The notes below the pieces were generated by a model that searched no databases, was not told where the DNA came from, and saw nothing but the letters and a program-made list of their open reading frames with translations. Position numbers and translations under genes: made by a program. A stretch of 64,000 bases of DNA from Acidobacteriota bacterium (lineage in GTDB: Bacteria; Acidobacteriota; B3-B38; Guanabaribacteriales; JAGGZT01): NCBI GenBank assembly GCA_021161905.1, contig JAGGZT010000004.1, positions 73,884-137,883 on the forward strand, in the 5' to 3' direction. Shown in pieces: positions 7,953 through 62,538 of the stretch. Each line of letters begins with the position of its first letter. Positions within the stretch are counted from its first letter, which is position 1.

Positions 7953-8030
<78 letters not shown>

Positions 8031-8702: not shown

Positions 8703-9461
8703 TCATCCTTCAAGAAACGAGGCAAATTCCTTTTCCCAATCCTCTTTCAACTGGGGAAGTAGTTGGTAATCCGTCAAATCGAGCTTAAGGGGGGTGATTG
8801 AGATATAGCCTCTTTTCAAAGCGCCAATGTCAGTATCCTCCGGCTCTCCCTCGGGATAATGTTGGGGACCAATCCAGTAATAGAGCTTCCCTCGGGGGTC
8901 AACCCGCTCCAGAACCGATTCCCCTCCGCTTCTCCTTCCTTGTCGCGTGATTCTGACCCCTTTGATCTCGGAAGAGGGCACATTGACATTGAGAAATCTC
9001 CCTGGGGGAAGGGGGGATTTAATAAGTTTAGAGGATAAAACCTTGGCGAACAAAGCTGGCTTTTTGAAATCACCATCGGAATCCTCAAAAGAGATGGCAA
9101 AGGATGAAACACCGAGCAACGCCCCCTCCATAGCTCCTGCAACGGTGCCCGAATAGGTGATATCGTCAGCAAGGTTCACCCCTCTGTTTATCCCGGAGAC
9201 AACAAGGGCAGGCTTTGCTGGAAGCAATTTAAGCACCCCAAGGAGAACGCAGTCGGTAGGGGTGCCACATACCGCATATCTCTGAGGGGCGATCTTCTCC
9301 GCTCGGAGCGGTTGATTAAGGGTAATGGCATGGCTTACCGAGCTCACCTCTCGCTCAGGAGCCACCACCCATACCTCGCCTACCGCCTCAAGCTCCTCAG
9401 CCAACATCTTTATCCCGGATGAAAGGATACCGTCATCATTGGTCACCAATATGATCGCCAT
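8703..9461 (-). CDS. surE: 5'/3'-nucleotidase SurE
   Basis: N-terminus MAIILVTNDDGILSSGI and the GINRGVNL motif. Length and overall pattern match SurE. Confidence 0.9.
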   Translation of the reverse strand: MAIILVTNDDGILSSGIKMLAEELEAVGEVWVVAPEREVSSVSHAITLNQPLRAEKIAPQRYAVCGTPTDCVLLGVLKLLPAKPALVVSGINRGVNLADDITYSGTVAGAMEGALLGVSSFAISFEDSDGDFKKPALFAKVLSSKLIKSPLPPGRFLNVNVPSSEIKGVRITRQGRRSGGESVLERVDPRGKLYYWIGPQHYPEGEPEDTDIGALKRGYISITPLKLDLTDYQLLPQLKEDWEKEFASFLEG

Positions 9462-9574: not shown

Positions 9575-9970
9575 TCATTTATTAACATCTCGCTCCAAGA
9601 TTGTCAAGAGATCGCTAAGCTCTTTTTTCACCCTCCTCAATATATCCCTTGCCTCATCCCCGCCAGAGGCAGAAATGGGGGGAGCTCCCTCCTTTCTCCT
9701 TCCAGCCAGCTCTTCAACGAGTTTCTTCCTCGCACCAGCGATGGTGTACCTCTCTTCGTAAAGGAGTTTCTTTATCTTAAGAACAATCTCGACATCACGG
9801 CGGGAATAAATCCGCTGTCCCGAAGAATTCTTCTCTGGGGAAAGGGGTTTAAACTCCGTCTCCCAATACCTAAGGACATAAGGGGGAACACCAACGATTT
9901 CCGCCACTTCTCCTATCTTAAAGTAGAGCTTTTCGCCCAACATCCTGTTCTTAAGCTTATCACTTGTCAT
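9575..9970 (-). CDS. MerR-family transcriptional regulator
   Basis: N-terminal HTH YFKIGEVAEIVGVPPYVLRYWETEF, the typical MerR recognition helix, followed by a coiled-coil C-terminus. Confidence 0.85.
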   Translation of the reverse strand: MTSDKLKNRMLGEKLYFKIGEVAEIVGVPPYVLRYWETEFKPLSPEKNSSGQRIYSRRDVEIVLKIKKLLYEERYTIAGARKKLVEELAGRRKEGAPPISASGGDEARDILRRVKKELSDLLTILERDVNK

Positions 9971-10268
9971 AACGGGTCATCCGGGTGGAGTTCAAATTGA
10001 GACGCTTCACAAAAAGCTGGGATGGCTTAAACACAACCGAGTAGTGTGAGGGAATCGACTGTCTTTCCCCTGTTTGTGGATTCACCACCTCCCTTTCGTT
10101 CTTCCTTCTTATAAAAAAAACCCCAAAACTGGATATCTTAACCTTCTCCCCCCGTTTCAACCTCATAGCGATTAGGGAGAAAATAAGGTCCACCAGATTA
10201 AGCGCCTCTTTTTTTAAAAGCCCCCCATGCCTGTGATATATCACCTCAGCCAAATCCTTCTTTGTCAT
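9960..10268 (-). CDS. HU/IHF-family DNA-binding protein (integration host factor-like)
   Basis: MTKKDLAEVIY...RLKRGEKVKISSFGVFFIRRKNEREVVNPQTGERQSIP matches the IHF/HU arm motif (GFGxF...R.aRNP.TGe). It overlaps the MerR gene by 11 nt. Confidence 0.85.
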   Translation of the reverse strand: MTKKDLAEVIYHRHGGLLKKEALNLVDLIFSLIAMRLKRGEKVKISSFGVFFIRRKNEREVVNPQTGERQSIPSHYSVVFKPSQLFVKRLNLNSTRMTRYDK

Positions 10269-12550
10269 CGGAACAACTCCACATCCCTCTCCTTAAGCAC
10301 CAGAGGAAGGGTTATCTCGTCACCTGACTTTAACAATATCACCTCGTCCCTCCTCCCCACCCCCTCCTTAACCGCGCTAAGCTGATAAGCTCCTGGAGAG
10401 ACCCCTTTTATAAGGTAATCTCCCTCCTCTGAGGAGAGGGTGGTAGCAACGAGCTTCCCCTCCCGATCGACCAGCTTCACGGTAGCCCCAGAAACAAAGG
10501 TGCCCCTGATAGTCAACACCTTTCCTCTTACTATACCACCTGCTGAACCAAATCTTTTAAAGGGAACCTCGATAAATTTATCCATCCCAGCAAAAACTTC
10601 CACCTCCCTCGTCTCCTCAGTATATCCATCCTTTAAAAAGGAAAGGGAGAATCCCCCTTCGGGAAGCTTCAGGAATTGGAATTTCCCCTCATTGTCGGTG
10701 AAGGTAGCGTCCTCATAGGAAAGGTCCCCTCTACCTTTCAGTATCACAATCACCTCGCCCACTCCTTCCTTGGTCTCATCGTCCAAAACCGCTCCTCGCA
10801 AAACCCCATAGCCGGGAGCGAGCTCGAGCTGTTTCGAAATAATTTTGGAAGCACCAGGAGTGAAGACCGCCCGCGAACGGAAAACCCGCTTATAGCCCTC
10901 TTTTGACGCCTGAAGTATATAATTTCTTCCCCGCTTCAAATCGGAAAACTCAAATTCTCCGTTAGCACCCGTCTTGGTGGTCCTCACTTCCTTGGTGCTC
11001 TCATCTATTAGTTCGATGGTGGCATCGGGAAGGGGGAATTGATTAGTGGTATCGTAAAGTTCCCCAACCACTTTAAATACCGGCTTCTCCAGGATGAGCT
11101 CCACCGAAACTTCCTCTCCCGGACTAATAGCCAGGATTTTCTTCGACTCGCTTCCCGAAAGATAGCCTGAGGCGCGAGCGGCTATAGTGTATGTCCCTGG
11201 GCGAACCTCATCGAAAGAAAAAGAGCCATCAGGAGTACTCCTTACCTCCTTTATCACATAACCCACACCATCGAGGATGTCAACTCGCACCTCGGGAAGA
11301 GGCTCACCAAAATCCGATAAAACCCTTCCTTTGACCTTACCCGGAGCCTTTATCTCAGTTTCAGCAGTAATATCCCCTCTCCCCTTTGAACCAGAAGACC
11401 TCGGCGAAAGCTTTACCGTAGGAGTTTCATCTCCTAAGAGGGCTTCTTCCTCTTCCGCTTCCTCTAAAGAAGTAGAATCGATAGGTTGAGGCACCGCTAA
11501 CGGCTTTCTCCTTGCGGAGTAAAACCTTAAGACCCAGTAAGTGGCAAGACCAGCAGCACCAGCCAACCCTATGATTAAGAGGATACCCATTAGCTTGCCA
11601 AATATCAGAGACTTAACCCTAAGCTCGAAGACAACTACCTTGAACCCCCCATTAAGCGCCTCCTCAGGTAGAGCTATCTTCCTTCCCGTCTCATCCCAAC
11701 AGGGAGAGCCCGGATTGGTATTGCTTACCTCCGATATCTCCCGCACAATGTTGCCCTCAGCATCCATAACATATAAACTCACTAACGCCCATTCCTTCTT
11801 GGCACAATAGGCTATAAGATTACCATCGGGAGAATAGGAGAAGGAGATAAGACCCGGGATCTTTCTCACCAGCCTGATGTCACTACCGTTAAAATTCATC
11901 TGGTAGATCCCAAGGTCGTTGTAAAGACCAGAGATAAAAGCTATTCTACCCAATCTCCTGGGACAACTCGGTGAGGAGGCATAGACTAAATCCGTAAGCT
12001 GGTTAAGCTCGCTTCCATCCCGGTTCACTATAAAAATCTGCCGATCCTTAACAAATACCAATCGCCTCCCTTCTGGGGTCCAGGCTGGCTCGGTTCCTCC
12101 TTTAGTGTTAGGAAGAGGAAACCTCTCTCCATCAGGCAGGGAAAAGATAACCAAATCGCTATCCTCATTTAAGAAACGAACGCAAACGATAAACTTACCA
12201 TCAGGCGAGAACCTGGGGAAGCTATATCTGACCGGAACCTCTACCTTTCTCCTTCTCCGGAAAAGGACCACCTTCTCCTCATTTGAGTTGGTAAGCCGGC
12301 GAAGGGTATCACCCTTCAGTTCATAGATGAATATATCCTTCCCATTATCAAAGGCGACCGACTTGCCATCGGGAGACCAATCGATATGGGCTATAAGGGA
12401 AATACCCTTGAGCTTCTTGGCGGGAATGAGGTCCATTTGCTCAGATGGCTTCAACCTTTCCAGATCCTTCTTGGAAAGCCCCTGAAACCCAAAGAGGAAA
12501 CACTCAAAGCCAAGAAAAAGGAAGAAGATTGCGAAAGTCTTACCTTTCAC
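10265..12550 (-). CDS. Membrane protein: signal peptide, TolB-like WD40/PD40 beta-propeller, a single TM helix, an acidic linker, and four tandem CarboxypepD_reg-like (transthyretin-fold) domains
   Basis: 761 aa. N-terminal signal sequence. PD40-like repeats (DWSPDGKSVAF, FSPDGKFIV, SYSPDGNLIAY). TM LMGILLIIGLAGAAGLATYWVLRFY. Then four ~85 aa repeats of type GRVLSDFGEPLPEVRVDIL...TPDGSFSFDEVRPGTYTIAARASGY. Overlaps the IHF-like gene by 4 nt. Confidence 0.7.
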   Translation of the reverse strand: MKGKTFAIFFLFLGFECFLFGFQGLSKKDLERLKPSEQMDLIPAKKLKGISLIAHIDWSPDGKSVAFDNGKDIFIYELKGDTLRRLTNSNEEKVVLFRRRRKVEVPVRYSFPRFSPDGKFIVCVRFLNEDSDLVIFSLPDGERFPLPNTKGGTEPAWTPEGRRLVFVKDRQIFIVNRDGSELNQLTDLVYASSPSCPRRLGRIAFISGLYNDLGIYQMNFNGSDIRLVRKIPGLISFSYSPDGNLIAYCAKKEWALVSLYVMDAEGNIVREISEVSNTNPGSPCWDETGRKIALPEEALNGGFKVVVFELRVKSLIFGKLMGILLIIGLAGAAGLATYWVLRFYSARRKPLAVPQPIDSTSLEEAEEEEALLGDETPTVKLSPRSSGSKGRGDITAETEIKAPGKVKGRVLSDFGEPLPEVRVDILDGVGYVIKEVRSTPDGSFSFDEVRPGTYTIAARASGYLSGSESKKILAISPGEEVSVELILEKPVFKVVGELYDTTNQFPLPDATIELIDESTKEVRTTKTGANGEFEFSDLKRGRNYILQASKEGYKRVFRSRAVFTPGASKIISKQLELAPGYGVLRGAVLDDETKEGVGEVIVILKGRGDLSYEDATFTDNEGKFQFLKLPEGGFSLSFLKDGYTEETREVEVFAGMDKFIEVPFKRFGSAGGIVRGKVLTIRGTFVSGATVKLVDREGKLVATTLSSEEGDYLIKGVSPGAYQLSAVKEGVGRRDEVILLKSGDEITLPLVLKERDVELFR

Positions 12551-12567
12551 CTTTATTTCTCAGGTTA

Positions 12568-13602
12568 TTATTTTTTTGTGATCTTTATCTCGAGGTTCAA
12601 TTTAAGGCGAACGAGTTCAACATCCTTATCAACGGTGATAGAAACGGGAAGGGAGATTTCCTTCTCTTCAATTTTGGCAGCTTTCGGCTTCTTCAGGGAC
12701 GGTGTCCCCCTCTTCTCAGTCTTATCAGCAACGATGGAGGAAGCCTTCCTTTCAGAAGAAACAAAATCACTCTCGGTGATTATCTCATCACCTATATCAA
12801 GATCTCCTGCCTGAATTTCGTAAAAATCCTCCACCTCATCGACCTTATTCGCGCTAACCTTTACTCTTTTTACACTCACCTCCTGAATAATCTCCGAAAG
12901 ATCTCCCTCCCTTTCCTCAAGTGTCTTCGGAGGAGTAGTAGCAATAGCCTCCGGTGGGGAGGTAGCCAACACCTCGTGCGACTCCTTAATTGCAGAAGTA
13001 TCTATCTCCTCCCCTCCGTACTCCTGCGATATCCTGGTGAGAACCAACCTCGCTACCTCTCTAAGAGATTCATAAACCCCCACCCCCCTTATCGCTATCC
13101 CCTCGAAATAAGGGGCACCGTATTTGTTCAACATCGTATTGATATCGGAGACAGGCATAATGTTCGGCAGGTCCCGTTTATTATACTGAACCACATGGGG
13201 AATGTCTCTGAGCCTCCTTCCCTGCTCCTTCAAGTTCTTCTCCAAATTGTCCCAGCTCTCCAGATTCGCCTCAAGCATCTCCTTCTGAGAATCGGCAACG
13301 AAAACCAATCCATCGACACCTTGAAGTACCAACTTCCTGGTGCTGTTATAAAAGACCTGCCCCGGAACGGTGTAAAGCTGGATTCTGATGTGCATCCCTT
13401 TTATTGTTCCAAGCTCGATGGGAAGGAAGTCAAAAAAGAGGGTCCTATCATCGGCAGTAGTCAGGGATATCATCTTCCCCTTGTTCCCCTGGGGAAGGCT
13501 GTTGTAGATGTACTGGAGATTGGTAGTCTTACCACTAAGGCCCGGTCCATAATAGACTATCTTAGCGGTTATCTCCTTGGTAGCATAATTGAAGAATACC
13601 AA
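12568..13602 (-). CDS. mglA: MglA-family Ras-like small GTPase with a ~150 aa acidic C-terminal extension
   Basis: The first ~195 aa align residue-by-residue with Myxococcus MglA: KIVYYGPGLSGKTTNLQYIY, TADDRTLFFDFLP, the MglA-specific LYTVPGQVFY G3 motif, and VQYNKRDLP (NKxD). The C-terminal extension (~150 aa, acidic then lysine-rich) has no recognisable domain. Confidence 0.85.
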   Translation of the reverse strand: MVFFNYATKEITAKIVYYGPGLSGKTTNLQYIYNSLPQGNKGKMISLTTADDRTLFFDFLPIELGTIKGMHIRIQLYTVPGQVFYNSTRKLVLQGVDGLVFVADSQKEMLEANLESWDNLEKNLKEQGRRLRDIPHVVQYNKRDLPNIMPVSDINTMLNKYGAPYFEGIAIRGVGVYESLREVARLVLTRISQEYGGEEIDTSAIKESHEVLATSPPEAIATTPPKTLEEREGDLSEIIQEVSVKRVKVSANKVDEVEDFYEIQAGDLDIGDEIITESDFVSSERKASSIVADKTEKRGTPSLKKPKAAKIEEKEISLPVSITVDKDVELVRLKLNLEIKITKK

Positions 13603-13682
13603 CTCTTTCTCTCCTCTTAAAACTACCGTATTTTTTAAAAGTTTACCACAAGAGAGGAGGAGGCGTCAATCAAATTAGCTTC

Positions 13683-14993
13683 CTACTCGCTCTTTCTAAG
13701 CTTTATCACCAGCGGCGTCCCGGTGAAATCAAACGCCTCGCGGAACCTGTTCTTCAGATAACGAAGATAATTCTTGGAGATCCGATCCGGATCGTTAACG
13801 AAGAGGACAAAAGTAGGCGGGCTAACCGAAACCTGGGTACCATAATAGATCTTAGGAAACCCCTTCCTGGACGCCGGAGGACGATATCGAGAAATAATCC
13901 CTCTTAAGAACTGATTCAAAACACCGGTGGGTATCCTTCTTCTCCTATTTTCTGCCACCTTCTCCGCTGCCTCAACCGCTCGGTAAACGCCCCTTCCCTC
14001 TTTCGCTGAAATGAAGAGGATGGGCGAATAGTCAATCGGTTTAAGCCTTTCCTTGATCCTCGCCCGATATGCCTCTTCCAGCCCCTTCCTTTTCGGAAGG
14101 AGATCCCACTTATTCATCGCTATCACCAGTCCCACTCCAGCACTATGAGTGAAATGAGCGATAGCGACATCTTGGCTGGTGATTCCTTCCTCAGCATCAA
14201 GAAGAAGAATAGCCACCTCCGCTCGCTCGAGACTCCCTCGTGCTTTAAGAACACTCACCACTTCGAAACGCTCCTTGATCCTGCTTTTTCTCCTTATCCC
14301 CGCCGTATCGATTATCCGATATCTCTTTCCCTTATAGGAGAAAACCAAATCAACCGCATCGCGTGTAGTTCCCGGCTTTTCATGAACGAGTACCTTCTCC
14401 TCTCCAATAAGTCGGTTGACCAAGGTTGACTTGCCCACATTGGGCCTTCCCACCACCACCAGCTTCGTCTCTTCCTCCGGTTCCTCCTCTTTCGAAACCG
14501 AGGGGATCAAAGAGACCACCCGATCGAGCAACCTCCCTATTCCCCGATTATGCTCCGCGGAGATAGGGATTACCTCGGAGAGTCCAAGTTCATAGAACTG
14601 GTACAGATTGACGAGATGTTTTTCTTCATCGATCTTGTTCACCACCAATATAAAGGGCTTATCGTAGCGACGAATAAGCTGGATCAACTCCTCATCCAGT
14701 GGGGAAACCCCGGTCTTGGCGTCAACCACAAAAAGGAGGACATCCGCCTCCTCTACAACTGAGAGTACCCGCTCCCGCACCTTCTCGAAAAGAGAATCAT
14801 CAGTGAAAAGATCAAGGCCTCCGGTATCGATGAGATTGAACCTCTTACCCTCCCACTCCACCTCCGAGATAAGACAATCCCGGGTGATACCCGGGGTGGG
14901 ATCTACAATAGCCCGCCTGCTCCGGGTAATCCGGTTAAATAGGGTTGATTTACCCACATTGGGCCTTCCCAGTATCACTACCTGCGGATACAT
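13683..14993 (-). CDS. der: Ribosome-associated GTPase Der (EngA), tandem GTPase domains plus KH-like C-terminus
   Basis: Two P-loops (GRPNVGKSTLFNR and GRPNVGKSTLVNR) and two DTxG/NKxD sets; 436 aa. Confidence 0.95.
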   Translation of the reverse strand: MYPQVVILGRPNVGKSTLFNRITRSRRAIVDPTPGITRDCLISEVEWEGKRFNLIDTGGLDLFTDDSLFEKVRERVLSVVEEADVLLFVVDAKTGVSPLDEELIQLIRRYDKPFILVVNKIDEEKHLVNLYQFYELGLSEVIPISAEHNRGIGRLLDRVVSLIPSVSKEEEPEEETKLVVVGRPNVGKSTLVNRLIGEEKVLVHEKPGTTRDAVDLVFSYKGKRYRIIDTAGIRRKSRIKERFEVVSVLKARGSLERAEVAILLLDAEEGITSQDVAIAHFTHSAGVGLVIAMNKWDLLPKRKGLEEAYRARIKERLKPIDYSPILFISAKEGRGVYRAVEAAEKVAENRRRRIPTGVLNQFLRGIISRYRPPASRKGFPKIYYGTQVSVSPPTFVLFVNDPDRISKNYLRYLKNRFREAFDFTGTPLVIKLRKSE

Positions 14994-15104
14994 CTTCCTC
15001 CTCGGAAATTGCCCCTACCTTATACCACATACCAGAAACGGATTCAAGGAAACCTCCTTGACCTCAAGGGAAAATGAGGATATCTTAAACCGAAGAGGAA
15101 AAAG

Positions 15105-19849: not shown

Positions 19850-20242
19850 TCACTCCTTCCTGCCAACGGCGATATCATAAGCATCGAGAATGAGGAGGAG
19901 ATTCAAAAGACCAGCCACGATAAGAAATGTAGTCCCATAATTAAAGGCAAAACTGGTTATGTCGGGAGAGGTAAGCCCTCCATACTTGGCAATGAAATAA
20001 GGAAGGCCAACACCGAGATCCCCCAAGGCAGCTAATAGGGAAAGGAAGGAACCCTCAGAGATAGAGTATAGTTTCCCCTTGAGAAATATACCGAGAAGGA
20101 ACATCCCGATGATGAGAAGGAAGAAGATTACCCCCCTCCTCCATCTCTTGAGAAAGAGGTGCCCTCCACCGGGAAAAAGCCAGGCGAAAAAACAAGCAAA
20201 TACCACCCTTCCTTTCCCCATAGCCATCTCCAAGCCTCCCAA
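19850..20242 (-). CDS. Small 4-TM integral membrane protein of unknown function
   Basis: 130 aa. WLFPGGGHLFLKRWRRG follows the first TM helix. Four predicted TM segments. Separated from the CsgG-like gene by 4 nt. Confidence 0.6.
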   Translation of the reverse strand: MGGLEMAMGKGRVVFACFFAWLFPGGGHLFLKRWRRGVIFFLLIIGMFLLGIFLKGKLYSISEGSFLSLLAALGDLGVGLPYFIAKYGGLTSPDITSFAFNYGTTFLIVAGLLNLLLILDAYDIAVGRKE

Positions 20243-20246
20243 ATTC

Positions 20247-21125
20247 CTACTGTTTTTTCTTCTTTATCGTATCTTTAGCCTGTGGGCTACCAGAAAGAAC
20301 CCTGCAAACAGCATACTTCTCCTTCACCTTCACCACTTCGATTTCTCCCACCTTTTCCTCCTCTGCACCAAGAGGAAGTCCCGTATCGGGGTCAATCAAC
20401 TCCTCCCCTTTCCGGAAGACCTCGAAGACATCGCCCACCTCGACCCCCCAATTGCTTCCGATATTGATATATAGATTGGCGCCACTGACCTTTATCACCT
20501 TCCCCTTCACGCTCAATTGGGATAGATTTCCCACTTTCTCCACGATCTTCGCCACTATCTTCTCAACTGCCGGATGCATCACCTCATTAGCAAGACCATA
20601 ATTATAACTCTGATAGAAACTGGCGCTTTTTACCCTTGCTCCTACCAATCTTTTCTTATTTGCAGCTTCGGCGGCAAGCTCGATCTCGCCGGTGGTCGTA
20701 TTGATTAGGCGAGCATTGAGCACCACCTTGCCCGTGGTTACTCCTACCCCAAACCCCCTGAAGCCACCACCGGTTCTGCTTATGGCGAACTCGGTAATGG
20801 AACCGGTAAGGATGTATTGCACTCCAAGGAGCCTTCCCACCTTCGCCGCTGTCTCCGGGGTAACCAAGCCAGAGGCGCCAAGGTTCTGCTCCTTAAGTAC
20901 CGTCTCCAACTTCTCCCGCTCGATAACCGAGAACTTACCTGTATCTAACAAATCGGTCACAAAAACATCAGCTGCCGCTTCGCCTAACCTATCTCCCCAC
21001 CAATACCAATGGCTCTTGTTTTCAAAATTCACCACCGCAATCCTCACCTTAGCCTTCCCCTGGGCAAAAAGGAGAGAAGAAATAATCAGGATAAGGATCA
21101 AAGGAATAATACTTCTCCTTAACAT
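20247..21125 (-). CDS. CsgG-family (curli secretion channel-like) periplasmic/outer-membrane protein with an extra C-terminal beta-rich domain
   Basis: Signal peptide (LLFAQGKAK, no lipobox Cys). CsgG-like core VRIAVVNFENKS...GDRLGEAAADVFVTDLLDTGKFSVIEREKLETVL...YILTGSITEF. About 90 extra C-terminal aa. Confidence 0.6.
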   Translation of the reverse strand: MLRRSIIPLILILIISSLLFAQGKAKVRIAVVNFENKSHWYWWGDRLGEAAADVFVTDLLDTGKFSVIEREKLETVLKEQNLGASGLVTPETAAKVGRLLGVQYILTGSITEFAISRTGGGFRGFGVGVTTGKVVLNARLINTTTGEIELAAEAANKKRLVGARVKSASFYQSYNYGLANEVMHPAVEKIVAKIVEKVGNLSQLSVKGKVIKVSGANLYINIGSNWGVEVGDVFEVFRKGEELIDPDTGLPLGAEEEKVGEIEVVKVKEKYAVCRVLSGSPQAKDTIKKKKQ

Positions 21126-21146: not shown

Positions 21147-22445
21147 TTAAACCGCCTTTTCTGCCTTCTTCAAACCCCTTAAAGAAAACCTTTTCAATCG
21201 ATGGAAAACAAAATCTGAAACTTCTGCCTCCACTATTATACGCCCTTTTGATACCTTAAGGGAAATTATTTTCCCCTCTGATCTAAGCCTCGCCAATGCC
21301 TCTCCTTCGGCAAGAGGGAAGGAAAACCTTACCACCTCCCGTGGTGGCAATATCACGAAGGAGATACGATCTAAAAGCTGAGCTATCCCTTCTCCAGTCA
21401 AAGCAGAAATAAAGATCGCCTCCTCGCCCCATCTACGCCTCAGGTTGAGCAGTTCCCTTTCGTCCAGTTTGTCTATCTTGTTCAATACCGTTATTATAGG
21501 CTTCTCTTCGGTTAGGATTTCGGAGAGTACCTGCTCTACTGTCCTCTTGTGTTTAAGATATTCCGGATTGGAGATATCAACTACATCCAATATAAGATCC
21601 GCCTGCGCCACCTCTTCCAGAGTGGCCTTAAAAGCGGCAACCAACTGATGGGGAAGCTTTCTGATAAAACCCACTGTATCGGCAAGGAGGAAAACATCTC
21701 TATTTGGAAGGACAACCCGCCTGATCAAGGGGTCTAAGGTCTCAAAAACTCGAGAGCTCACCGAAGCGGAGGCACGAGTGAGCCGATTGAAAAGGAGAGA
21801 CTTCCCCGCATTGGTGTAACCGACCAAGGCGACCAGAGGTATTCCTACCCGCTTCTTCCTCCTCTTCCTCTGTTCCTCTCTTCTCCGGGCGATCCTCTCT
21901 ATCTCCCGTCTTATCCGGGTTATCCTTCTCTCTATCTTCCGCCTATCTATCTCCAGCTTTGTCTCCCCAGGTCCTCTGGTGCCAATCCCAGCACCCAATT
22001 GGGAAAGGTACTGCCCTCTCCCCACCAAACGGGGGAGAAGATAGGTAAGCTGTGCCAACTCTACCTGAAGACGCCCTTCCTTCGTGTGGGCTCTTTTAGC
22101 GAATATATCAAGGATGAGACCAGTGCGATCGATTATCTTCAGGGAAGTAGCCCGCTCAATATTCCTCTGCTGCGCCGGAGTTAGTTCTCCATCAAAAACG
22201 ATTAAAGTTGCCTTTTTTTCCTCTGCCTCCCTTGCTAAATACTCTATCTTCCCCTTTCCCACTAAATACCGAGGATCTAGTCTCTTTCTATGCTGAAGAT
22301 AAGACCCAACCACCTCCGCCCCTGCTGCTCGAGCAAGATGGACAAGCTCACAAAGAGAATCTTCAGCCTCCCCCTTCTCTCGATAATCGAGATAAACACC
22401 TATTATTAATGTCCGTTCTCTCTCGTTAGTATCGGCCACCTTCAC
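21147..22445 (-). CDS. hflX: GTPase HflX
   Basis: HflX N-terminal domain ([18 protein letters not shown]) followed by a GTPase domain with P-loop [15 protein letters not shown]. Confidence 0.9.
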
Positions 22446-22459
22446 CTTATACGCCTAAA

Positions 22460-22741
22460 TTACTTATCGCGGGTATCACTCTCCCCCTTATTCCGCTCTT
22501 CAAGCAAAGGTTCAAGGTTTAGCTTATTGCGAAATGTCTTAGGCGAGCTCACCGTGGATATGGCATGTTTAAACACAATCTGCTCCTGCCCATTAGCTTC
22601 GATCACCAGAGCAAACTTGTCAAAACCTTTGATCCTGCCCTTGATCTTAAATCCGTTCATCAAATGAAGAACAACGGGAACCCGCTCCCGCCGAAGGCGA
22701 TTGAAGAACTCATCCTGAATGTTATTAGGAGAATCTGCCAT
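22460..22741 (-). CDS. hfq: RNA chaperone Hfq
   Basis: Sm1/Sm2 motifs: VPVVLHLMNGFKIKGRIKGFDKFALVI and IVFKHAISTV. Confidence 0.92.
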   Translation of the reverse strand: MADSPNNIQDEFFNRLRRERVPVVLHLMNGFKIKGRIKGFDKFALVIEANGQEQIVFKHAISTVSSPKTFRNKLNLEPLLEERNKGESDTRDK

Positions 22742-23687
22742 CTTCTCTCCCTTTCTCGGTTAAAAATTGCTTAACCAAAATCTCTATTTTAGGATAAACT
22801 TCCTCCTCCTTTGTTACCTCAAACCAATTTATCCCCTCCTCCTTTCTAAACCAGGTAAGTTGCCTTTTCGCATAATGACGCGTTTCCCTCTTTATCCTCT
22901 CTTTTGCCTCCTCAAGTGAGAGCTCTCCTTTGATATGAGCGACGACTTCACGATATCCTAAAGCATTAAAGGCGTGGGCATCCTCAGGAATACCTCTCTC
23001 GATTAGTCTCCTTACCTCATCTACCCAGCCGTTTTCGAACATCTTCTCCACTCGTTCCTCTATTCGCTGATAAAGTAGTTTTCGTGGTAGGATAAGCCCT
23101 ATCTTCAAATTGGGATATCGCTCCTCCCCAAAAGGAGCTCTCTTTATATGCTCCGACATCGCCATCCCCGTGGCAAAATAAACCTCCAATGCCCGAATTA
23201 TCCTCTGACTATCGTTAGGTCCTACCCGACTGTAGGTAGCCTCATCTACCCATCTTAACACTCGAGCGAGATAAGACAACCCCTTCTTCCTCTCAATATC
23301 CTTAAGCCGAGCTACCAGAGCTTGGTTTCGGGGAGGACTATTGAATAGACCACGAAGTAGCGCCCTTAAATAAAGTCCCGTCCCTCCTACTATTATCGGA
23401 AGACACCCTCGCTCCCATACCTCCGCTATCTTCCTCTCGGCAAGCCCAGCAAACCTCCCCGCCGAAAACCTCTCCTCAGGCGAGGCGATATCGATAAGAT
23501 GGTGAGGTATCCCCCTTTTTTCTTCCTCGCTCAACTTTCCTGTCCCCACATCCAACCCCCGGTAAACCTGCATCGAATCCGCACTTATCACCTCTCCCTT
23601 GAACTTCTTGGCGAGATGAACCCCCAATCTACTTTTCCCCACCGCGGTGGGACCCACGATTATCACCAACCTTGGTCTCATCCGCAC
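22725..23687 (-). CDS. miaA: tRNA dimethylallyltransferase MiaA
   Basis: P-loop IVGPTAVGKS, SADSMQVYRGLDVGT, HHLIDI. Forms the classic miaA-hfq-hflX order. Confidence 0.9.
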   Translation of the reverse strand: MRMRPRLVIIVGPTAVGKSRLGVHLAKKFKGEVISADSMQVYRGLDVGTGKLSEEEKRGIPHHLIDIASPEERFSAGRFAGLAERKIAEVWERGCLPIIVGGTGLYLRALLRGLFNSPPRNQALVARLKDIERKKGLSYLARVLRWVDEATYSRVGPNDSQRIIRALEVYFATGMAMSEHIKRAPFGEERYPNLKIGLILPRKLLYQRIEERVEKMFENGWVDEVRRLIERGIPEDAHAFNALGYREVVAHIKGELSLEEAKERIKRETRHYAKRQLTWFRKEEGINWFEVTKEEEVYPKIEILVKQFLTEKGREDGRFS

Positions 23688-23887: not shown

Positions 23888-26140
23888 TCAATAAATCCTG
23901 CTTATCGAAACGCCGGTATAGTAGTGAGTCAAGATATCTCTATAGCTCGCCCCCCTAAGCGCCATACCAAATGCTCCTACCTGACAAAGTCCTACTCCAT
24001 GACCCCATCCCTTGCCTACGAAAGTGAACCTCTGGATCCTTCCTTGAGCATCGTAATTACGCTCAATCACGAATAATGTATCGCGCAAACCAAGGAGACT
24101 CCGTATAGAAAGACCAGAGAAAACCTTCTCACCCTTTTCCCCTATTACCCTCAGTCTAATAACCCTTCCTGATACACCGAACTTCTCCGGGACGAGATCG
24201 ACAACTTCCCCGAGATCGATATAACGGTGAACCCTCTCGGTAAGCTCTTCCCGACTGTAAGAAACCTCCCAGCTATGATAAGGAGAACGACGATCATCAG
24301 CAATCCCTTCTTTGCTTGGGACCACCTTAATAAAATCTATGCTCCCGTTATTATGATGGAACAGTAGTTCATCACCGACGAAAACCCGTAATCGGTTCAT
24401 CCGGATCGCTTTACCACCAACTGCGGAGAAAAGATAAAGCTTGGAGGATAAGGAATAGGAAACTTCCTCGCTCTTCAACTTGATAACCAGTTTCTCCCCT
24501 TCCTTCTTGAAGAAGGTTCCCTTATCGAGCCAGGGGTAGCCAAAACGAGAGAGAAGGTTGTAGATGAGCTTCAAAACCAACCCCCGGGAAGGAGGAGAAG
24601 AGAGATGGTAGTTCCCGTCGGGAAAAGGGTTGATCACCCCTTCTTTTACCAATAGAGCGACTTTCTTCAAACTCTCTATAGAAAAAGGAATCTTCCGGGC
24701 GTCAGGTATGAGATAAGAGACATCCTTCTCTTCTATCATCAGCTGGGCACGACGACGCCAACCCAGCCCATCAACCAAAAAGGAGAGGACATCGAGCAAA
24801 GAGGGATAATCGGGGATGCTTACTTCTCCTCCCTTTTTCCCTATTATCCGGAGAGCCCTTGAGAAGAAATCCTCCACCTCTTTTCCATCAATTGGCTGAG
24901 AAAGATAGGCAGATGAGAGCTTCTCCCCTGAGATCACCCCAGTAAGGAACAAGAGGACAACCTTCTCCGTTATCTCCTCTCCATCTTCGGAATGGATCGA
25001 GGGGGGGGAGATACCTCCTTCGATCAACTCCTCCCCGTCCATCTCAGGATAACACTCTACTCCCCGAAGATAGGGCTCCTTTTCACCAGGAAAGATGTTC
25101 TCCACATTCTCGGTATGCCCACCGCAAGTGGAGGTATATAAGGCATTTATTGGTTCTCCTTCGTAAGTAATTACCTCGCCCATAGTCGCAAGAACGGCTT
25201 TAGTGGTAAGTTCCCGCTCCGCAGATAACCCGCGATAAACCTGACAGCTTGGGGTGGAGCAGATATCAAAGCCCAATGAGGCGAATTTACCGAGATTCCT
25301 CACCGCATAGGTCCTCGCCGCCACCGCTTGGGCTTTGAGGGCTTCGAGCTCCGGGAAGACATCGGGACTCATCTCACAAGGAACCACCCCCTTTAGATAA
25401 TCCTCGAGCCAGAGCTCATTCACCGCCAATAAACCGCCGCTCGGGGAAATATAGACCTCCACCACTCCTCGATAGGGATGACCATTTACCTTCAAGGGAT
25501 GGGAAAAATCGCGGGGTACAAAAAGAAGCTTCTTCCTAACTCGCTTTACTTCACCCTGAGGGAAGAGGGTAAGGAGGAGTTCACTCGCTCGAGAGGGGTA
25601 CTCGTTCGAAACGATGAAAGCCCCGTAAAAACCAAGCCGGGAGAGTTCAGAAAGGAGCTTAGTTGCTTCCTTACGATCCTTAAACCTCCCCACCCTCACC
25701 TGATAAACCGCTTTTTTTTCATCATAGTTAAGGGAAACAGGAAGAGAGATATCTTCCCTTAACCTCTCCACTATTCTCCTTCCATTCTCTTTCTTCGAGA
25801 AAGAGCCAACTTGGATCTGATATATTCTTCTTCCCCCTTCACCAAGAAGTTTCACCTCCGCTTCTCGAAAGAGGGCTTTTCCCAAAAGAAAATCACCCTC
25901 ATCTTTATCCACCAAATAGAACATCCCCTCAGATGAAATATCAACCTCCCTCGCCCCTTGGGAGAGGGAAACCCGGATCGTTGGCTCACGAAGAGATTTA
26001 CCAAAAAGGCGATAGATTACGAGGTTGGTCTTCCCCTTAGGAGGAGGATAAGGCGTTGGAGGTCCTTTACAGGCAAAAAGGATGGAAAATAGAAAAAAGA
26101 TTAAAAGGAGCTTGGAAACGAGGTGGAATCTATCTTTCAT
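23888..26140 (-). CDS. SpoIID/LytB-domain cell-wall protein with a SPOR peptidoglycan-binding domain
   Basis: Signal peptide. SPOR-like repeat (YQIQVGSFSKKENGRRIVERL...YQVRVGRFKDRKEATKLLSEL). SpoIID/LytB core (LKAQAVAARTYAV...DICSTPSCQVYRG...YTSTCGGHTEN). Confidence 0.75.
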   Translation of the reverse strand: MKDRFHLVSKLLLIFFLFSILFACKGPPTPYPPPKGKTNLVIYRLFGKSLREPTIRVSLSQGAREVDISSEGMFYLVDKDEGDFLLGKALFREAEVKLLGEGGRRIYQIQVGSFSKKENGRRIVERLREDISLPVSLNYDEKKAVYQVRVGRFKDRKEATKLLSELSRLGFYGAFIVSNEYPSRASELLLTLFPQGEVKRVRKKLLFVPRDFSHPLKVNGHPYRGVVEVYISPSGGLLAVNELWLEDYLKGVVPCEMSPDVFPELEALKAQAVAARTYAVRNLGKFASLGFDICSTPSCQVYRGLSAERELTTKAVLATMGEVITYEGEPINALYTSTCGGHTENVENIFPGEKEPYLRGVECYPEMDGEELIEGGISPPSIHSEDGEEITEKVVLLFLTGVISGEKLSSAYLSQPIDGKEVEDFFSRALRIIGKKGGEVSIPDYPSLLDVLSFLVDGLGWRRRAQLMIEEKDVSYLIPDARKIPFSIESLKKVALLVKEGVINPFPDGNYHLSSPPSRGLVLKLIYNLLSRFGYPWLDKGTFFKKEGEKLVIKLKSEEVSYSLSSKLYLFSAVGGKAIRMNRLRVFVGDELLFHHNNGSIDFIKVVPSKEGIADDRRSPYHSWEVSYSREELTERVHRYIDLGEVVDLVPEKFGVSGRVIRLRVIGEKGEKVFSGLSIRSLLGLRDTLFVIERNYDAQGRIQRFTFVGKGWGHGVGLCQVGAFGMALRGASYRDILTHYYTGVSISRIY

Positions 26141-26144
26141 ATAT

Positions 26145-26546
26145 TTATTTTATCTCTTCGGTAGCGATAGTAAGTCCCCGCGCTCCTGAACGGCGGGCGA
26201 AATCCATAATCTCCACAATAAATCCGTACTCCACCTTTCTATCCGCTCTGATTATAACCTGCTTGGTCTCACTTTGGGCAAGGGCTTTTTTAAGTAAAGA
26301 TTCGAGATTGGAGACCGCCACTTCACGTCCCTGAAAGAACACTCGCTTATTTCGGCTTACGGTAATTATCAACTCCTTCATCCGCTCTTGGGTAGCGCTT
26401 TTTGCCTTGGGGAGCTCGAGCTTCAAACCAGGTCTTTCCACAAAGGTGGTGGTCACCATAAAAAAGATGAGGAGAAGAAAAACAACATCGATCAAAGGAT
26501 GAATATCGATCTTTATCTCTCGAGGCTTCTTCTTCCTGAATTCCAT
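26145..26546 (-). CDS. exbD: ExbD/TolR biopolymer transport protein
   Basis: Starts MEFRKKK. An internal Met was chosen over the track start, which adds 12 aa. TM segment DVVFLLLIFFMVTTTF and ExbD periplasmic domain. Confidence 0.8.
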   Translation of the reverse strand: MEFRKKKPREIKIDIHPLIDVVFLLLIFFMVTTTFVERPGLKLELPKAKSATQERMKELIITVSRNKRVFFQGREVAVSNLESLLKKALAQSETKQVIIRADRKVEYGFIVEIMDFARRSGARGLTIATEEIK

Positions 26547-26556
26547 ACCCCCTCCT

Positions 26557-27207
26557 CTACTCGCTTCCCGCAGCTTTCTCAAACTCCTTCTTCCTCAGCT
26601 TAACACTCATCATTATCTTTAAAAAGCCCATTGAATGCTTTTCTATCTCTCGGATTATGCGCTCTGCCCTGTCAAGAAAGAAGTTATACATCACCAAGGT
26701 GGGGATAGCGATGGACAGCCCGGTAACGGTAGTAATAAGCGCCTCGGCTATGCCTGCGGAAAGAGCTCCTGCTTGCCCTACCCCGGTCACCGAGATGATG
26801 CGGAAGGTCTTTATCATCCCGGTAACCGTTCCCAAAAGCCCTAAAAGCGGAGAAATAGAAGCTATAGTGCCCAATGTACCAAGATATTTTTCCAGCTTTG
26901 CTGCCTCATGACGCCCAACATCGGCAACCGCCTCTCTGATCTCCTCCCGGGGGAGATCCCTGTTCTCAAGGGCAGTGAGAATTATGTTGCTCAATGCCCC
27001 TGGTTTTCTCCTCAAAAATTCCTCTGCCTTTTCAAAAAGCCCCTCACTTAGAAAAGCCCTTATAGTCCGTAGGTCATCTTCATTTATTATCTTTTTGGTT
27101 CTCAGGTTTATGAGTTTCTCAATTATTATGGCGAGGGAAAGCAGAGAACAAAAAATGAGCGGAATCATTACCGGACCACCGCTCTTCAACCACTCGACAA
27201 CTGTCAT
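26557..27207 (-). CDS. exbB: MotA/TolQ/ExbB proton-channel protein
   Basis: Three TM helices. Conserved LGLLGTVTGMIKTF and GIAEALITTVTGLSIAIP motifs. Confidence 0.85.
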   Translation of the reverse strand: MTVVEWLKSGGPVMIPLIFCSLLSLAIIIEKLINLRTKKIINEDDLRTIRAFLSEGLFEKAEEFLRRKPGALSNIILTALENRDLPREEIREAVADVGRHEAAKLEKYLGTLGTIASISPLLGLLGTVTGMIKTFRIISVTGVGQAGALSAGIAEALITTVTGLSIAIPTLVMYNFFLDRAERIIREIEKHSMGFLKIMMSVKLRKKEFEKAAGSE

Positions 27208-27221
27208 TTAATCCTCCTTTC

Positions 27222-28175
27222 TCATCTATCAGGGGGTCTCATATTATAGTAAAAAGCGAAGGTAACTCCAACCGAATCTTTTGGATATTCCTTGGGAAGG
27301 GCAGGGAGAGGATTGGAAAGCTGAATAGCGTTCAAAGCAGCAGCATCAAAAGGATCAATTCCAGAAGAATGTACAAGATGAAGCCCCACTACCCGACCAT
27401 CCTTGGTGATACGAAATCGAAGTACCGTCACCCCTCTTAAACCAAGTTCCCTTGCTGCATAAGGGATAAACCAATTGCTTTTCACTATCCTGTAGAGTAT
27501 CGCCGCATAGGGACCGAAATCGAAATCCTGGGTGTCAAATGAAATGGCACTATTCGTCTTAAGTGAGGAACGGCGGTTATCAAAGACCTCCGTTTCTATA
27601 TACTTATCCAGGTTATTCAAACTCTCCTTGAGGGAGCGAGAGGAGGGAACACCCATCTTAACCTTAGGCTTGGTGGGGGAAGGAGAAATAGAACTCCCTT
27701 TCTCCAAGGGAACCGTTCCTTTTAAATCGCTTGCCTTCAAACCCTTCCCCCTTTCCACCTGTTTTGTGGGTAATTCTGGTTTAGGAACCCCCTTCGAAAA
27801 GCTCTGAGTTCCACCCCGTCTCAATACAAAATCAGGACTATTCCCTTTTAAATAGGGCTTCTTCTCGGCAGAAAGATCAGGCTTCGGTGGAGCAGGACCT
27901 CCCGCCAACCTGTTTTTGTCGGAAAAATACGGGGTATTAGGGCGAACTTTCGCCTCTCGGTCATTGGGAACATCAACGAAGGTGAACTTGATCGGCTCTC
28001 TCTCTGCCTTGGTCTTAGACGGTGATTTCGCTGCGATCCTTATTGGACGGAGAAATTTAAACGGGCGATAGTAGAGGGTTGCGAAGAGGATAAGATGGAG
28101 AAGAAGAGCAAGTAGAAACGCCTCTCGAAATGAAAAGGGCCTCTCTAATTTAAAAGATATCTTTCTCGCTGCCAA
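27222..28175 (-). CDS. TonB-family protein (N-terminal TM anchor, Pro/Lys-rich spacer, TonB C-terminal domain)
   Basis: TM helix, then a proline-rich region (PKPDLSAEKKPYLK..., PKPELPTKQ), then a TonB_C-like end (YRIVKSNWFIPYAARELGLRGVTVLRFRITKDGRV). Confidence 0.7.
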   Translation of the reverse strand: MAARKISFKLERPFSFREAFLLALLLHLILFATLYYRPFKFLRPIRIAAKSPSKTKAEREPIKFTFVDVPNDREAKVRPNTPYFSDKNRLAGGPAPPKPDLSAEKKPYLKGNSPDFVLRRGGTQSFSKGVPKPELPTKQVERGKGLKASDLKGTVPLEKGSSISPSPTKPKVKMGVPSSRSLKESLNNLDKYIETEVFDNRRSSLKTNSAISFDTQDFDFGPYAAILYRIVKSNWFIPYAARELGLRGVTVLRFRITKDGRVVGLHLVHSSGIDPFDAAALNAIQLSNPLPALPKEYPKDSVGVTFAFYYNMRPPDR

Positions 28176-29103: not shown

Positions 29104-29610
29104 TTATTTCTTAGTTTCCTTAGAAGATGGAGAACTACTTTCAGGAGACAGCTTAAAGGAAGAAGAAGCTGCCTTAGGAGGCAGAGTTTCCTCGACCTTA
29201 CCCATATCCACCTTTCCTCTGAAGAAGGCACCTTCAGAGATCATCACCTTGGGGGATTTAATATCCCCCTCTACCGAACCAGAAGAAAGTATCTCCACTC
29301 GAGACTTAGCGGTTATATTCCCTACCACCTTTCCCTCAACCTTCACTTGATTAGCGAACAGCTCTGCCTTTACAAACGCGTTCTTCCCTATGGTAAGGTT
29401 TTTCTCTATATTTATCTTTCCGTCAAAGTTACCTTCTATCCTCACATCCTCGGAGCCGGAGAGGTCGCCCACCACCTTTATCATCTTGCCTATAACCGTG
29501 GTAACCCCAAATCCTGTTTCATCGGACATCGTTTCGCTCCTTCCTGTTGTGAGGGGATTGGTAGCTCCGGATGAAAACCCCTCTTTCTTTTTCTTATCAA
29601 AGATTCCCAC
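29104..29610 (-). CDS. Bactofilin (DUF583) cytoskeletal protein
   Basis: Beta-helical bactofilin repeat pattern (VVGDLSGSEDVRIEGNFDGKI...VKVEGKVVGNITA...VEILSSGSVEGDI) with a disordered Ser/Pro-rich C-terminal tail. Confidence 0.85.
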   Translation of the reverse strand: MGIFDKKKKEGFSSGATNPLTTGRSETMSDETGFGVTTVIGKMIKVVGDLSGSEDVRIEGNFDGKINIEKNLTIGKNAFVKAELFANQVKVEGKVVGNITAKSRVEILSSGSVEGDIKSPKVMISEGAFFRGKVDMGKVEETLPPKAASSSFKLSPESSSPSSKETKK

Positions 29611-29661: not shown

Positions 29662-29737
29662 TGGAGCGGGCAACGGGTCTCGAACCCGCGACCTCAAGCT
29701 TGGGAAGCTTGCGCTCTACCAACTGAGCTATACCCGC
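29662..29737 (-). tRNA. tRNA-Gly (anticodon CCC)
   Basis: Reverse complement GCGGGTATAGCTCAGTTGGTAGAGCGCAAGCTTCCCAAGCTTGAGGTCGCGGGTTCGAGACCCGTTGCCCGCTCCA. Anticodon loop TTCCCAA. 76 nt with encoded CCA. Confidence 0.9.
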
Positions 29738-50590: not shown

Positions 50591-51034
50591 CTATTGATTC
50601 TTGTATAAACCATCCTGAAGGAAGATCCCATTGGAAAAAACAATGTCATCGATCGTGTTCGGTTTCCCATCTATTCCATCGGAGAAAATATAGTAGTTAA
50701 CTCCATCAAAGGAAAAATAACGAAGAGGCTTTCCAAAAGCATCCCTTATCGGCACCACCCTTAAATAATTCCCTTTCTCCAGCGCTTTCTTCAACTCCTC
50801 CATTCTATCGGTAATAGGGAAGAGACTCTGATCCGATTGGTAGAGAAGAAGAGCTTTAGCCAAATAGGATATGCTCGCCTCCGTCGTTCCTTCCCGTGCT
50901 TTATCCAACGCCTCTCGATAAAGCGGGATGGTTATTATAGCTAAGATGGAAATAATCGCCACACTGACCAATACCTCAATTAGGGTTGCTCCCCGCTCCC
51001 TTAATCGATGCTCGTTTTTCCTCATCTCTATCAT
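50591..51034 (-). CDS. Type IV pilin / pseudopilin-like protein (prepilin-type N-terminus)
   Basis: Leader MIEMRKNEHRLRERG, then ATLIEVLVSVAIISILAIITIP. The G-x-TLIE methylation motif and hydrophobic helix are present, but the residue after Gly is A instead of F/M. Confidence 0.7.
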   Translation of the reverse strand: MIEMRKNEHRLRERGATLIEVLVSVAIISILAIITIPLYREALDKAREGTTEASISYLAKALLLYQSDQSLFPITDRMEELKKALEKGNYLRVVPIRDAFGKPLRYFSFDGVNYYIFSDGIDGKPNTIDDIVFSNGIFLQDGLYKNQ

Positions 51035-61880: not shown

Positions 61881-61911
61881 ATCCGCCTCCTTGATTAAGC
61901 TGGTTTTATGG

Positions 61912-62535: not shown

Positions 62536-62538
62536 CGC

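Follow-up and report, generated by a model that had tools for sequence, protein, structure and literature searches.

A probable mosaic gene order around a long MglA-like GTPase, a PD40/CarboxypepD_reg membrane protein and an ihfA-zapT-like gene pair in Acidobacteriota

Introduction

Several described systems bear on a string of four minus-strand genes found at positions 9,575 to 13,602 of a 64-kb stretch of an Acidobacteriota genome (contig JAGGZT010000004.1; the whole stretch is referred to here as the window). The string encodes, in this order, a long MglA-like GTPase, a 761-aa membrane protein, an HU/IHF-family protein and a small MerR-family protein. The MglA proteins of group 1, such as those of M. 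xanthus and T. thermophilus, are about 195 aa long. SofG, an MglA paralog of M. xanthus, acts together with bactofilins and has additional sequence outside its G domain. It is not stimulated by MglB and has no known cognate GTPase-activating protein (GAP) (PMC4316618). The MerR-family gene that lies directly downstream of ihfA in an operon has been described as zapT (PMC7188993, PMC7858052). The Caulobacter ZapT protein (CCNA_01434; Ozaki et al., mBio 2020 and 2021) has about 141 residues, binds ZauP through a Leu-rich C-terminal domain and tethers the replication terminus to the Z-ring; as a working rule, ZapT homologs of alpha-, beta- and gamma-proteobacteria have been recognized by a MerR gene that flanks ihfA (PMC7188993, PMC7858052). 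TolB, of the Tol-Pal system, combines an N-terminal alpha/beta domain with a soluble periplasmic six-bladed propeller.

The first-pass annotation of the window had proposed that the four genes link an MglA switch to a TolB-like trans-envelope protein and to two DNA-binding regulators, as a polarity or envelope-spanning module specific to this lineage. The comparison with relatives reported here favors, with a probability of about 0.6, another reading, in which the four-gene string is a mosaic of old synteny and one recent insertion, probably co-transcribed, and not a dedicated machine.

Organization of the four-gene string

The genes and the features that adjoin them are as follows.

13683 to 14993, minus strand: der (engA), a ribosome-biogenesis GTPase (NCBIfam TIGR03594, E 3.9e-161), the upstream neighbor in the conserved string
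13640 to 13669, minus strand: promoter-like site in the 80-nt gap between der and the mglA-like gene (TTGACG, 18 nt, TAAACT, TG before the -10), a consensus match only
12568 to 13602, minus strand: long MglA-like GTPase, 344 aa, with a TTG start, an AGGAG-like ribosome-binding site and the N-terminus MVFFNY common to all homologs
10265 to 12550, minus strand: membrane protein, 761 aa, GTG start
9960 to 10268, minus strand: IHF-alpha-like HU/IHF-family protein, 102 aa (Pfam Bac_DNA_binding, E 4.4e-25)
9575 to 9970, minus strand: small protein of the MerR family, 131 aa, zapT-like from its gene context (Pfam MerR_1, E 2.9e-20), built of a helix-turn-helix (HTH), a central helix and, at the C-terminus, a Leu-rich helix
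9489 to 9567, minus strand: tRNA-Pro(GGG), identified with ARAGORN, directly downstream of the MerR gene
8703 to 9461, minus strand: surE (Pfam SurE, E 8.2e-59), downstream member of the conserved string
7953 to 8030, minus strand: tRNA-Pro(CGG), a second tRNA-Pro in the same conserved synteny, found after surE also in L001, L002, L088 and L089

A gap of 17 nt (12551-12567) separates the mglA-like gene from the 761-aa gene, which overlaps the IHF-like gene by 4 nt (10265-10268); the IHF-like and MerR genes overlap by 11 nt (9960-9970), and tRNA-Pro(GGG) begins 7 nt past the MerR stop. All these positions and spacings agree with those first annotated. Beyond the MerR gene and tRNA-Pro(GGG) follow surE, a VTT-domain gene, tRNA-Pro(CGG), an acylphosphatase gene and apt. 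Exact-sequence look-up leads to the NCBI entries MCD6450878-80, from a metagenome-assembled genome named "Acidobacteria bacterium", where the GTPase is annotated merely as a hypothetical protein.

Judged by their spacing, the four genes are probably co-transcribed. Scans for promoters and terminators returned counts no better than chance (7 promoter-like matches against 6.8+/-2.6 expected, and 15 terminator-like ones against 10.5+/-3.4), and are hence uninformative on transcript structure. We consider it very improbable that the genes are independently transcribed neighbors, free of shared regulation and brought close together by genome compaction. Such an explanation can point to the promoter-like site upstream of mglA and to others within the genes; however, the two overlaps and the 17-nt gap leave no space for intergenic promoters or terminators, the terminator-like matches, at chance level, fall within coding sequence, and equally tight spacing is seen in distant relatives.

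Conservation of gene order among relatives

The gene order of the window is repeated in the two relatives whose 761-aa proteins are 99% and 66% identical to that of the window. The 66% relative (L001) is syntenic with the window from der to apt, and for more than 8 kb on both sides, and because the whole surrounding region is conserved, the retention of the pair formed by mglA and the 761-aa gene in L001 is uninformative about a link between the two. More distant loci separate them. In L007 and L008, whose G domains are 67-70% identical to that of the window GTPase, the order is M50(-), der, mglA-long, IHF, MerR, tRNA-Pro(GGG), surE; in L004-L006 (G domain 49-52% identical) the order mglA-long, IHF, MerR, tRNA-Pro(GGG) is found between unrelated flanks. 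The 761-aa gene is missing from all of these loci, the IHF start lying about 10-16 nt after the GTPase stop. Since L004-L008 pass directly from the long MglA to the IHF-MerR pair, the 761-aa gene appears to be a lineage-restricted insertion.

These loci bear directly on the module proposed at first, in which GTP-bound MglA would dock on a cytoplasmic part of the 761-aa protein and the IHF-like and MerR proteins would regulate the pair or be co-regulated with it. The 17-nt gap and the 4-nt overlap do place the 761-aa gene inside the transcription unit, and the pair is retained in L001; but the pair is known from one 50%-identity cluster only, the conservation in L001 says nothing specific, and all other relatives of this MglA are without the 761-aa gene. 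The expectation that the two genes would be conserved as a pair is therefore contradicted by L004-L008, and a functional module of MglA and membrane protein is not supported; we now regard it as distinctly unlikely.

The rest of the string is much more widely distributed. The der gene stands directly upstream of a long MglA gene in the window, L001, L002, L003, L007, L008, L010, L033, L059 and L085, L003 being an Acidobacteriota metagenome-assembled genome and the sole locus that came from a contig scan with GTPase patterns drawn from the variable linker. The order mglA-long, MerR, tRNA-Pro is found in L033, L059 and L085, and an IHF-like gene lies upstream of MerR in L001, L002, L004-L008 and L088-L093. 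The last six, all Acidobacteriota, were chosen as MerR homologs on long contigs; the order priA, M50(-), HU(-), der, IHF, MerR, surE is present in 6/6 of them (in L093 an unannotated 299-aa open reading frame (ORF) takes the surE position), and an MglA gene in none. The surE gene follows MerR and tRNA-Pro in L001, L002, L007 and L088-L092. ARAGORN found tRNA-Pro(GGG) after MerR in the window, L001, L002, L004-L007, L033, L059, L085 and L088-L090 (L091-L093 were not scanned), and in the scanned loci it always trails the MerR gene, within about 10-90 nt. A trailing tRNA-Pro is common after ihfA-merR in proteobacteria too. The positions of tRNA-Pro(GGG) after MerR, and of tRNA-Pro(CGG) after surE and the VTT gene, are kept in Acidobacteriota contigs with Der only about 43% identical. 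In L088-L093 and L007 der and the M50 peptidase gene enclose an extra HU-family gene, divergent from der; in the window the corresponding space measures only 111 nt (14994-15104), the HU gene being missing in this lineage.

A neighbor-joining tree of Der groups the six MglA-less loci in a single clade, nested within the loci that bear MglA. Because of this nesting, the order der, mglA-long, (IHF), MerR is probably ancestral in this part of the phylum and was lost once, as read from a small sample and a crude tree. The opposite scenario, an insertion of MglA in only a subset of lineages, was weakened by the same tree, which fits one loss better. Literature searches (MglA with Acidobacteria; ihfA with MerR and tRNA-Pro) returned no description of the arrangement, nor of an MglA beside a membrane protein of this kind, in agreement with the first-pass annotation, which had called it undescribed.

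The 761-aa membrane protein

The protein can be divided into the following parts, supported in most cases by an AlphaFold2 (AF2) model with a mean pLDDT of 79.

12473 to 12550, minus strand: N-terminal hydrophobic signal peptide or signal anchor, residues 1-26 (Kyte-Doolittle >1.6 at residues 3-26; AF2 pLDDT 35)
11615 to 12454, minus strand: PD40 beta-propeller of TolB type, residues 33-312 (Pfam PD40; AF2 pLDDT about 90)
11513 to 11608, minus strand: single transmembrane (TM) helix, residues 315-346 (hydropathy peak 310-342; AF2 helices 315-330 and 333-346)
11357 to 11512, minus strand: acidic disordered linker, residues 347-398 (AF2 pLDDT 33-47; net charge -4)
10265 to 11341, minus strand: four tandem CarboxypepD_reg (transthyretin-like) beta-sandwiches, residues 404-761 (Pfam PF13620, E 1.2e-46, four stretches)

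The description of the product as a membrane protein with a propeller and CarboxypepD_reg domains holds, with its PD40 propeller, TM helix and four sandwiches, but its identification as TolB does not. With 76.6 bits it stays far below the cutoff of the NCBIfam TolB model (343.15). Foldseek does superpose its propeller on those of TolB (root-mean-square deviation 3.0-3.8 A over ~240 columns, 17-18% identity); however, the propeller starts at about residue 33, without the N-terminal domain of TolB, and it belongs to a membrane-anchored protein fused to four CarboxypepD_reg domains and encoded beside mglA- and ihfA-like genes instead of tolQRA-pal. A TolB or Tol-Pal role was rejected on these grounds, there being no tol-pal cluster at the operon. 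The CarboxypepD_reg part, whose four sandwiches are placed at residues 404-752 when model, hydropathy and Pfam are taken together, is modeled at a pLDDT of about 85-90 as four units alignable to one another, and its Foldseek matches are tandem Ig-like pilin and adhesin domains.

The domain order of this protein is exceedingly rare. A word-indexed search of 5.8 billion proteins gave only two full-length homologs, the 99% and 66% identical ones, and an exhaustive phmmer search of 1.84 billion cluster representatives gave the 66% relative (P0002) as the only full-length match, the other 65,000 matches covering either the propeller (about 55-310) or the sandwiches (about 400-750). The architecture is thus confined to one 50%-identity cluster among these representatives, and the arrangement is lineage-specific, as had been suspected. 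The partial matches include acidobacterial wHTH-TM-PD40 proteins, Ser/Thr kinase-TM-PD40 proteins and giant CarboxypepD_reg repeat proteins, which share domain types with the 761-aa protein; whereas in the wHTH and kinase proteins the TM helix is preceded by a cytoplasmic signaling domain and followed by the propeller, the 761-aa protein has the propeller first, behind a signal-like segment, and the sandwiches after the helix. No paralog was found within the window. GC content is flat at about 0.48 and gives no compositional anomaly for the gene, so that a horizontal-transfer signal, also considered, is unsupported.

The topology poses a puzzle. Because there is a single TM helix, followed by RRK, either the propeller or the sandwich block must be cytoplasmic, although both domain types normally are extracytoplasmic. 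For the proposed docking of MglA this counts on both sides: the predicted topology (signal-like N-terminal segment, one TM helix, RRK after it) leaves a large cytoplasmic part that could meet the GTPase, but as PD40 and CarboxypepD_reg domains are typically extracytoplasmic, the docking surface itself is uncertain. Moreover, an identity with TolB is rejected, and the window's genes of ExbB/ExbD/TonB type are unlinked, 14 kb off.

The long MglA-like GTPase

Three parts can be distinguished in the GTPase.

13018 to 13602, minus strand: MglA-type GTPase domain, residues 1-195 (structure match, invariant motifs; AF2 pLDDT mostly 80-95)
12685 to 13017, minus strand: acidic, variable, disordered linker, residues 196-306 (net charge -12; AF2 pLDDT <50)
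12568 to 12684, minus strand: conserved C-terminal motif, residues 307-344 plus the stop codon (EKEIsLPvsItv...vRLKLnLEIKI; AF2 pLDDT 57-73)

Pfam assigns the protein to Arf/Ras. Residues 1-195 align from end to end with M. xanthus MglA (5ymx, E 1.4e-73), which confirms the MglA-like assignment made at first, and the structures of M. xanthus and T. thermophilus MglA are matched at E 1e-73 to 5e-70. The group 1 signatures are kept: the P-loop GPGLSGKT, R53, T78-x-x-G-Q82 and NKRD141-144 are invariant among 85 homologs, and R53, T78 and Q82 line up with the M. xanthus MglA residues that constitute the intrinsic Arg finger, the Thr replacing Asp in G3, and the catalytic Gln, respectively. By its sequence the G domain is a genuine MglA-type domain, and since every MglA catalytic element is retained, we infer that the protein is a working GTP switch.

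The GTPase differs from the single-domain proteins of group 1 in its 150-aa C-terminal extension, which brings it to 344 aa and consists of the acidic linker and the terminal motif. Among long-MglA homologs the linker varies in length and sequence, the total length of the proteins ranging from 300 to 739 aa. The motif, of about 35 residues, has the family consensus EKEItVPieL...RLKLxLxIK; a hidden Markov model (HMM) built on it matched the extreme C-terminus in nearly all of the 120 best homologs (300-490 aa long), and it is visible by eye also in the 544-739-aa forms of L033, L059 and L085. It is present at the C-termini of P0122-P0240, L004-L008 and L016-L020. No Pfam or NCBIfam model fits it. 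In the AF2 model, built with the 85 homologs, the G domain folds, the linker is disordered and the motif is assigned no secondary structure. A resemblance of the motif to MglB was also considered, and none was seen by eye against the MglB C-termini of cluster C4. We propose that the motif may act as a tethered partner-binding or self-regulating peptide.

No MglB (Roadblock/LC7) ORF was found in the 64-kb window, either with an MglB HMM or with tblastn. In a comparison sample of 80 metagenomic MglA loci an adjacent Roadblock/LC7 gene was present in 31/80, mostly beside canonical 194-195-aa genes; most of the canonical loci sampled have MglB nearby, whereas the window GTPase belongs to a separate, long, MglB-less clade. 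The MglB gene immediately precedes the canonical genes and follows four long ones (L029, L048, L063 and L074), while the remaining long MglAs, without adjacent MglB, form one clade in a neighbor-joining tree. No Roadblock/MglB gene stands beside any der-linked long MglA among the sampled loci. The four long MglAs with MglB downstream, of 294-422 aa, group with the canonical MglB-coupled proteins, apart from the clade of the window, and some of them have a PATAN/DUF4388-like neighbor (by eye only). SofG, unstimulated by MglB, resembles the window GTPase as an MglA-family protein, but the G domain of the window protein is much closer to MglA, and its extension is C-terminal only, ending in a motif not reported for SofG.

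The published MglA classification left out proteins longer than 240 aa (PMC4316618). The long-MglA clade escaped classification because such proteins were dropped from the earlier surveys, and our literature searches found no description of it. The neighborhood of many long MglAs that bear the same C-terminal motif contains neither der nor an IHF or MerR gene, and in the P0139 subclade the long mglA is monocistronic in an unrelated setting; because it is monocistronic in other lineages, the long MglA would not depend on its neighbors.

The IHF-MerR pair and its likeness to ihfA-zapT

Among NCBIfam models the 102-aa protein scores best with IHF-alpha, at 82 bits (below the cutoff of 111), followed by IHF-beta (50) and HU (31), and by these scores it is an HU/IHF-family member most resembling IHF-alpha. 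The HTH and the C-terminal helix of the MerR protein (L..v+.eL..iLt.L) are kept across 15 orthologs. Whether or not MglA is present at their locus, the orthologs resemble the window protein to the same degree (48-55% identity), and those from both locus types share the HTH and the Leu-rich C-terminal helix. The nearest solved structures (GlnR, TnrA, CarH) are matched at the level of the HTH only. Two close homologs, P0275 (the query for L090) and P0290, carry the NCBI name Vicinamibacteria.

The pair also agrees with the operational definition of ZapT, a MerR gene flanking ihfA in a possible operon, the two genes overlapping by 11 nt. As in Caulobacter, a small MerR gene is found just downstream of an IHF-alpha-like gene in the same orientation, and its product, of the same size class (about 130-140 aa), begins with an HTH, continues with a central helix and ends in a Leu-rich segment. 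By gene context and architecture, then, the pair fits the published ihfA-zapT operon type, although the described operon is proteobacterial and the pair of the window is acidobacterial, trailed by tRNA-Pro(GGG) and preceded by der or a long MglA. No ZapA/ZapB-type Pfam match was found among the ORFs scanned in the 64 kb of the window. The two DNA-binding proteins noted in the first-pass annotation are indeed present; their tie to MglA is not borne out, as they follow the known ihfA-MerR (zapT-type) arrangement and occur MglA-free in six contigs.

These observations lead to a further explanation, in which the long MglA, the IHF-like protein and the ZapT-like protein would be the conserved unit and the 761-aa gene a passenger; an MglB-independent switch would then supply a nucleoid/divisome linker with spatial (polar or mid-cell) cues and so couple the placement of the chromosome terminus or division site to the GTPase cycle. 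The genes mglA-long, IHF, MerR and tRNA-Pro, with 10-16-nt gaps, are found in a monophyletic MglA subclade (window, L001, L002, L004-L008) that includes L004-L006 in spite of their differing flanks on both sides; the order mglA-long, MerR, tRNA-Pro in L033, L059 and L085 and a Der tree compatible with ancestral adjacency and one loss point the same way, and ZapT-type proteins act at the divisome. However, IHF-MerR-tRNA-Pro is intact, with MerR equally conserved, in the six MglA-less contigs, and many long MglAs with the same C-terminal motif lack MerR, IHF and der nearby. The support consists of adjacency, which could be inherited housekeeping synteny, and no co-evolution signal accompanies it. 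This explanation appears unlikely.

A probable mosaic of three layers

We therefore return to the mosaic of old synteny and one recent insertion, in which three layers may be recognized. The oldest would be an Acidobacteriota housekeeping string composed of der, ihfA-like, small MerR, tRNA-Pro(GGG), surE and tRNA-Pro(CGG), whose IHF-MerR pair would be the same kind of two-gene operon as the proteobacterial ihfA-zapT. The pair would join a nucleoid-bending protein to a small DNA binder of MerR fold, which may dock a partner through its Leu-rich C-terminal helix; in Caulobacter that partner is ZauP/ZapA at the Z-ring. The second layer would be the long MglA-family GTPase, long resident between der and ihfA and a member of a large clade; in place of an adjacent MglB GAP, the proteins of this clade have a disordered acidic tether with a terminal motif of about 35 residues. 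The third would be the 761-aa gene, inserted recently, and in this lineage only, into the short gap (about 10-17 nt) between mglA and ihfA. Its product would cross the membrane once, with an exported propeller of TolB type before the TM helix and four beta-sandwiches beyond it, and would probably be co-expressed with its neighbors by virtue of its position, with no conservation that ties it to MglA.

A number of observations weigh against this reading. The adjacency of the long MglA to IHF-MerR-tRNA-Pro survives where both flanks have changed (L004-L006) and holds across lineages with Der only 40-53% identical, and the Der tree suggests that the MglA-less state is a single loss. Retained adjacency could reflect selection for co-expression, in which case the word mosaic underplays a real functional link. 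A gene inserted in an operon is often functionally related to it, and in this lineage the 761-aa protein may, though improbably, act together with MglA; for this link, as for that of MglA with the IHF-MerR pair, adjacency is the only support. As to the evidence itself, co-transcription was deduced from spacing, the zapT assignment from gene context and architecture and not from a direct comparison with Caulobacter ZapT, and the phylogeny from crude neighbor-joining trees of about 20 informative contigs, mostly without taxonomy. These points can be combined into a broader scheme, in which a large and undescribed MglB-independent MglA clade of Acidobacteriota would use the peptide at the end of its tether to replace MglB-type regulation or to recruit a partner, the ancestral operon with the IHF- and ZapT-like genes would be a GTPase-controlled link between polarity and the chromosome or division site, and the 761-aa protein would have been recruited as an additional, envelope-anchored partner; taken as a whole, we hold this scheme to be quite improbable.

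Other genes of the window

Across the remaining 60 kb of the window, no gene ties the operon to motility. The link to Agl/Glt gliding suggested at first was not confirmed: neither MglB nor gliding genes were found in the 64 kb, and AglQRS/Glt-type envelope genes are absent beside the operon and in every related locus examined. TonB/ExbB/ExbD-like genes, a bactofilin gene, and genes for a PilB-like ATPase and a pseudopilin are present, 14-37 kb from the operon.

The first of these regions (23888-28175) comprises genes for a TonB_C-domain protein (27222-28175), ExbB/TolQ (26557-27207) and ExbD/TolR (26145-26582), followed by one for a 750-aa protein with SPOR and SpoIID domains (23888-26140); it lies 14 kb from the operon, and no tolB or pal adjoins the TonB_C/ExbB/ExbD genes. 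Bactofilins are partners of SofG in Myxococcus, but the bactofilin gene of the window (29104-29610) stands 16 kb away from the four-gene string, beside tRNA-Gly(CCC) (29662-29737). The gene at 48666-50585 encodes a PilB/GspE-like ATPase that has an MshEN domain and, at its C-terminus, a double zinc ribbon; next come genes for a pseudopilin bearing an N-methylation motif (50591-51034) and for a B-box zinc-finger protein (51045-51662). At 45959-48673 a 904-aa protein is encoded in which a zinc ribbon and a Ser/Thr kinase domain are fused to an FGE-sulfatase (formylglycine-generating-enzyme-like) domain at the C-terminus. Other strings include the classic miaA (22725-23687), hfq (22460-22741) and hflX (21147-22445), on the minus strand at 21147-23687, and a row at 60837-63075 with genes for an ECF sigma factor (62539-63075), an anti-sigma factor of zf-HC2 type (61912-62535) and a "toastrack" protein with DUF4097 (60837-61928). 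A CsgG-like lipoprotein with an FlgT_C-like tail (20247-21125) adjoins a DUF6677 protein (19850-20242).

Significance

If the mosaic reading is true, it carries a caution, as one comparison with relatives then dissolves the proposed module of MglA and a TolB-like protein, and the tight packing of an operon in a single genome does not define a machine. The ihfA-zapT operon type, described so far for proteobacteria, appears to be conserved in Acidobacteriota together with tRNA-Pro(GGG). The most interesting residue of the analysis is a very abundant, unclassified clade of long MglAs with no neighboring mglB and a conserved C-terminal peptide, which offers a tractable entry point to the regulation of the MglA switch without MglB.

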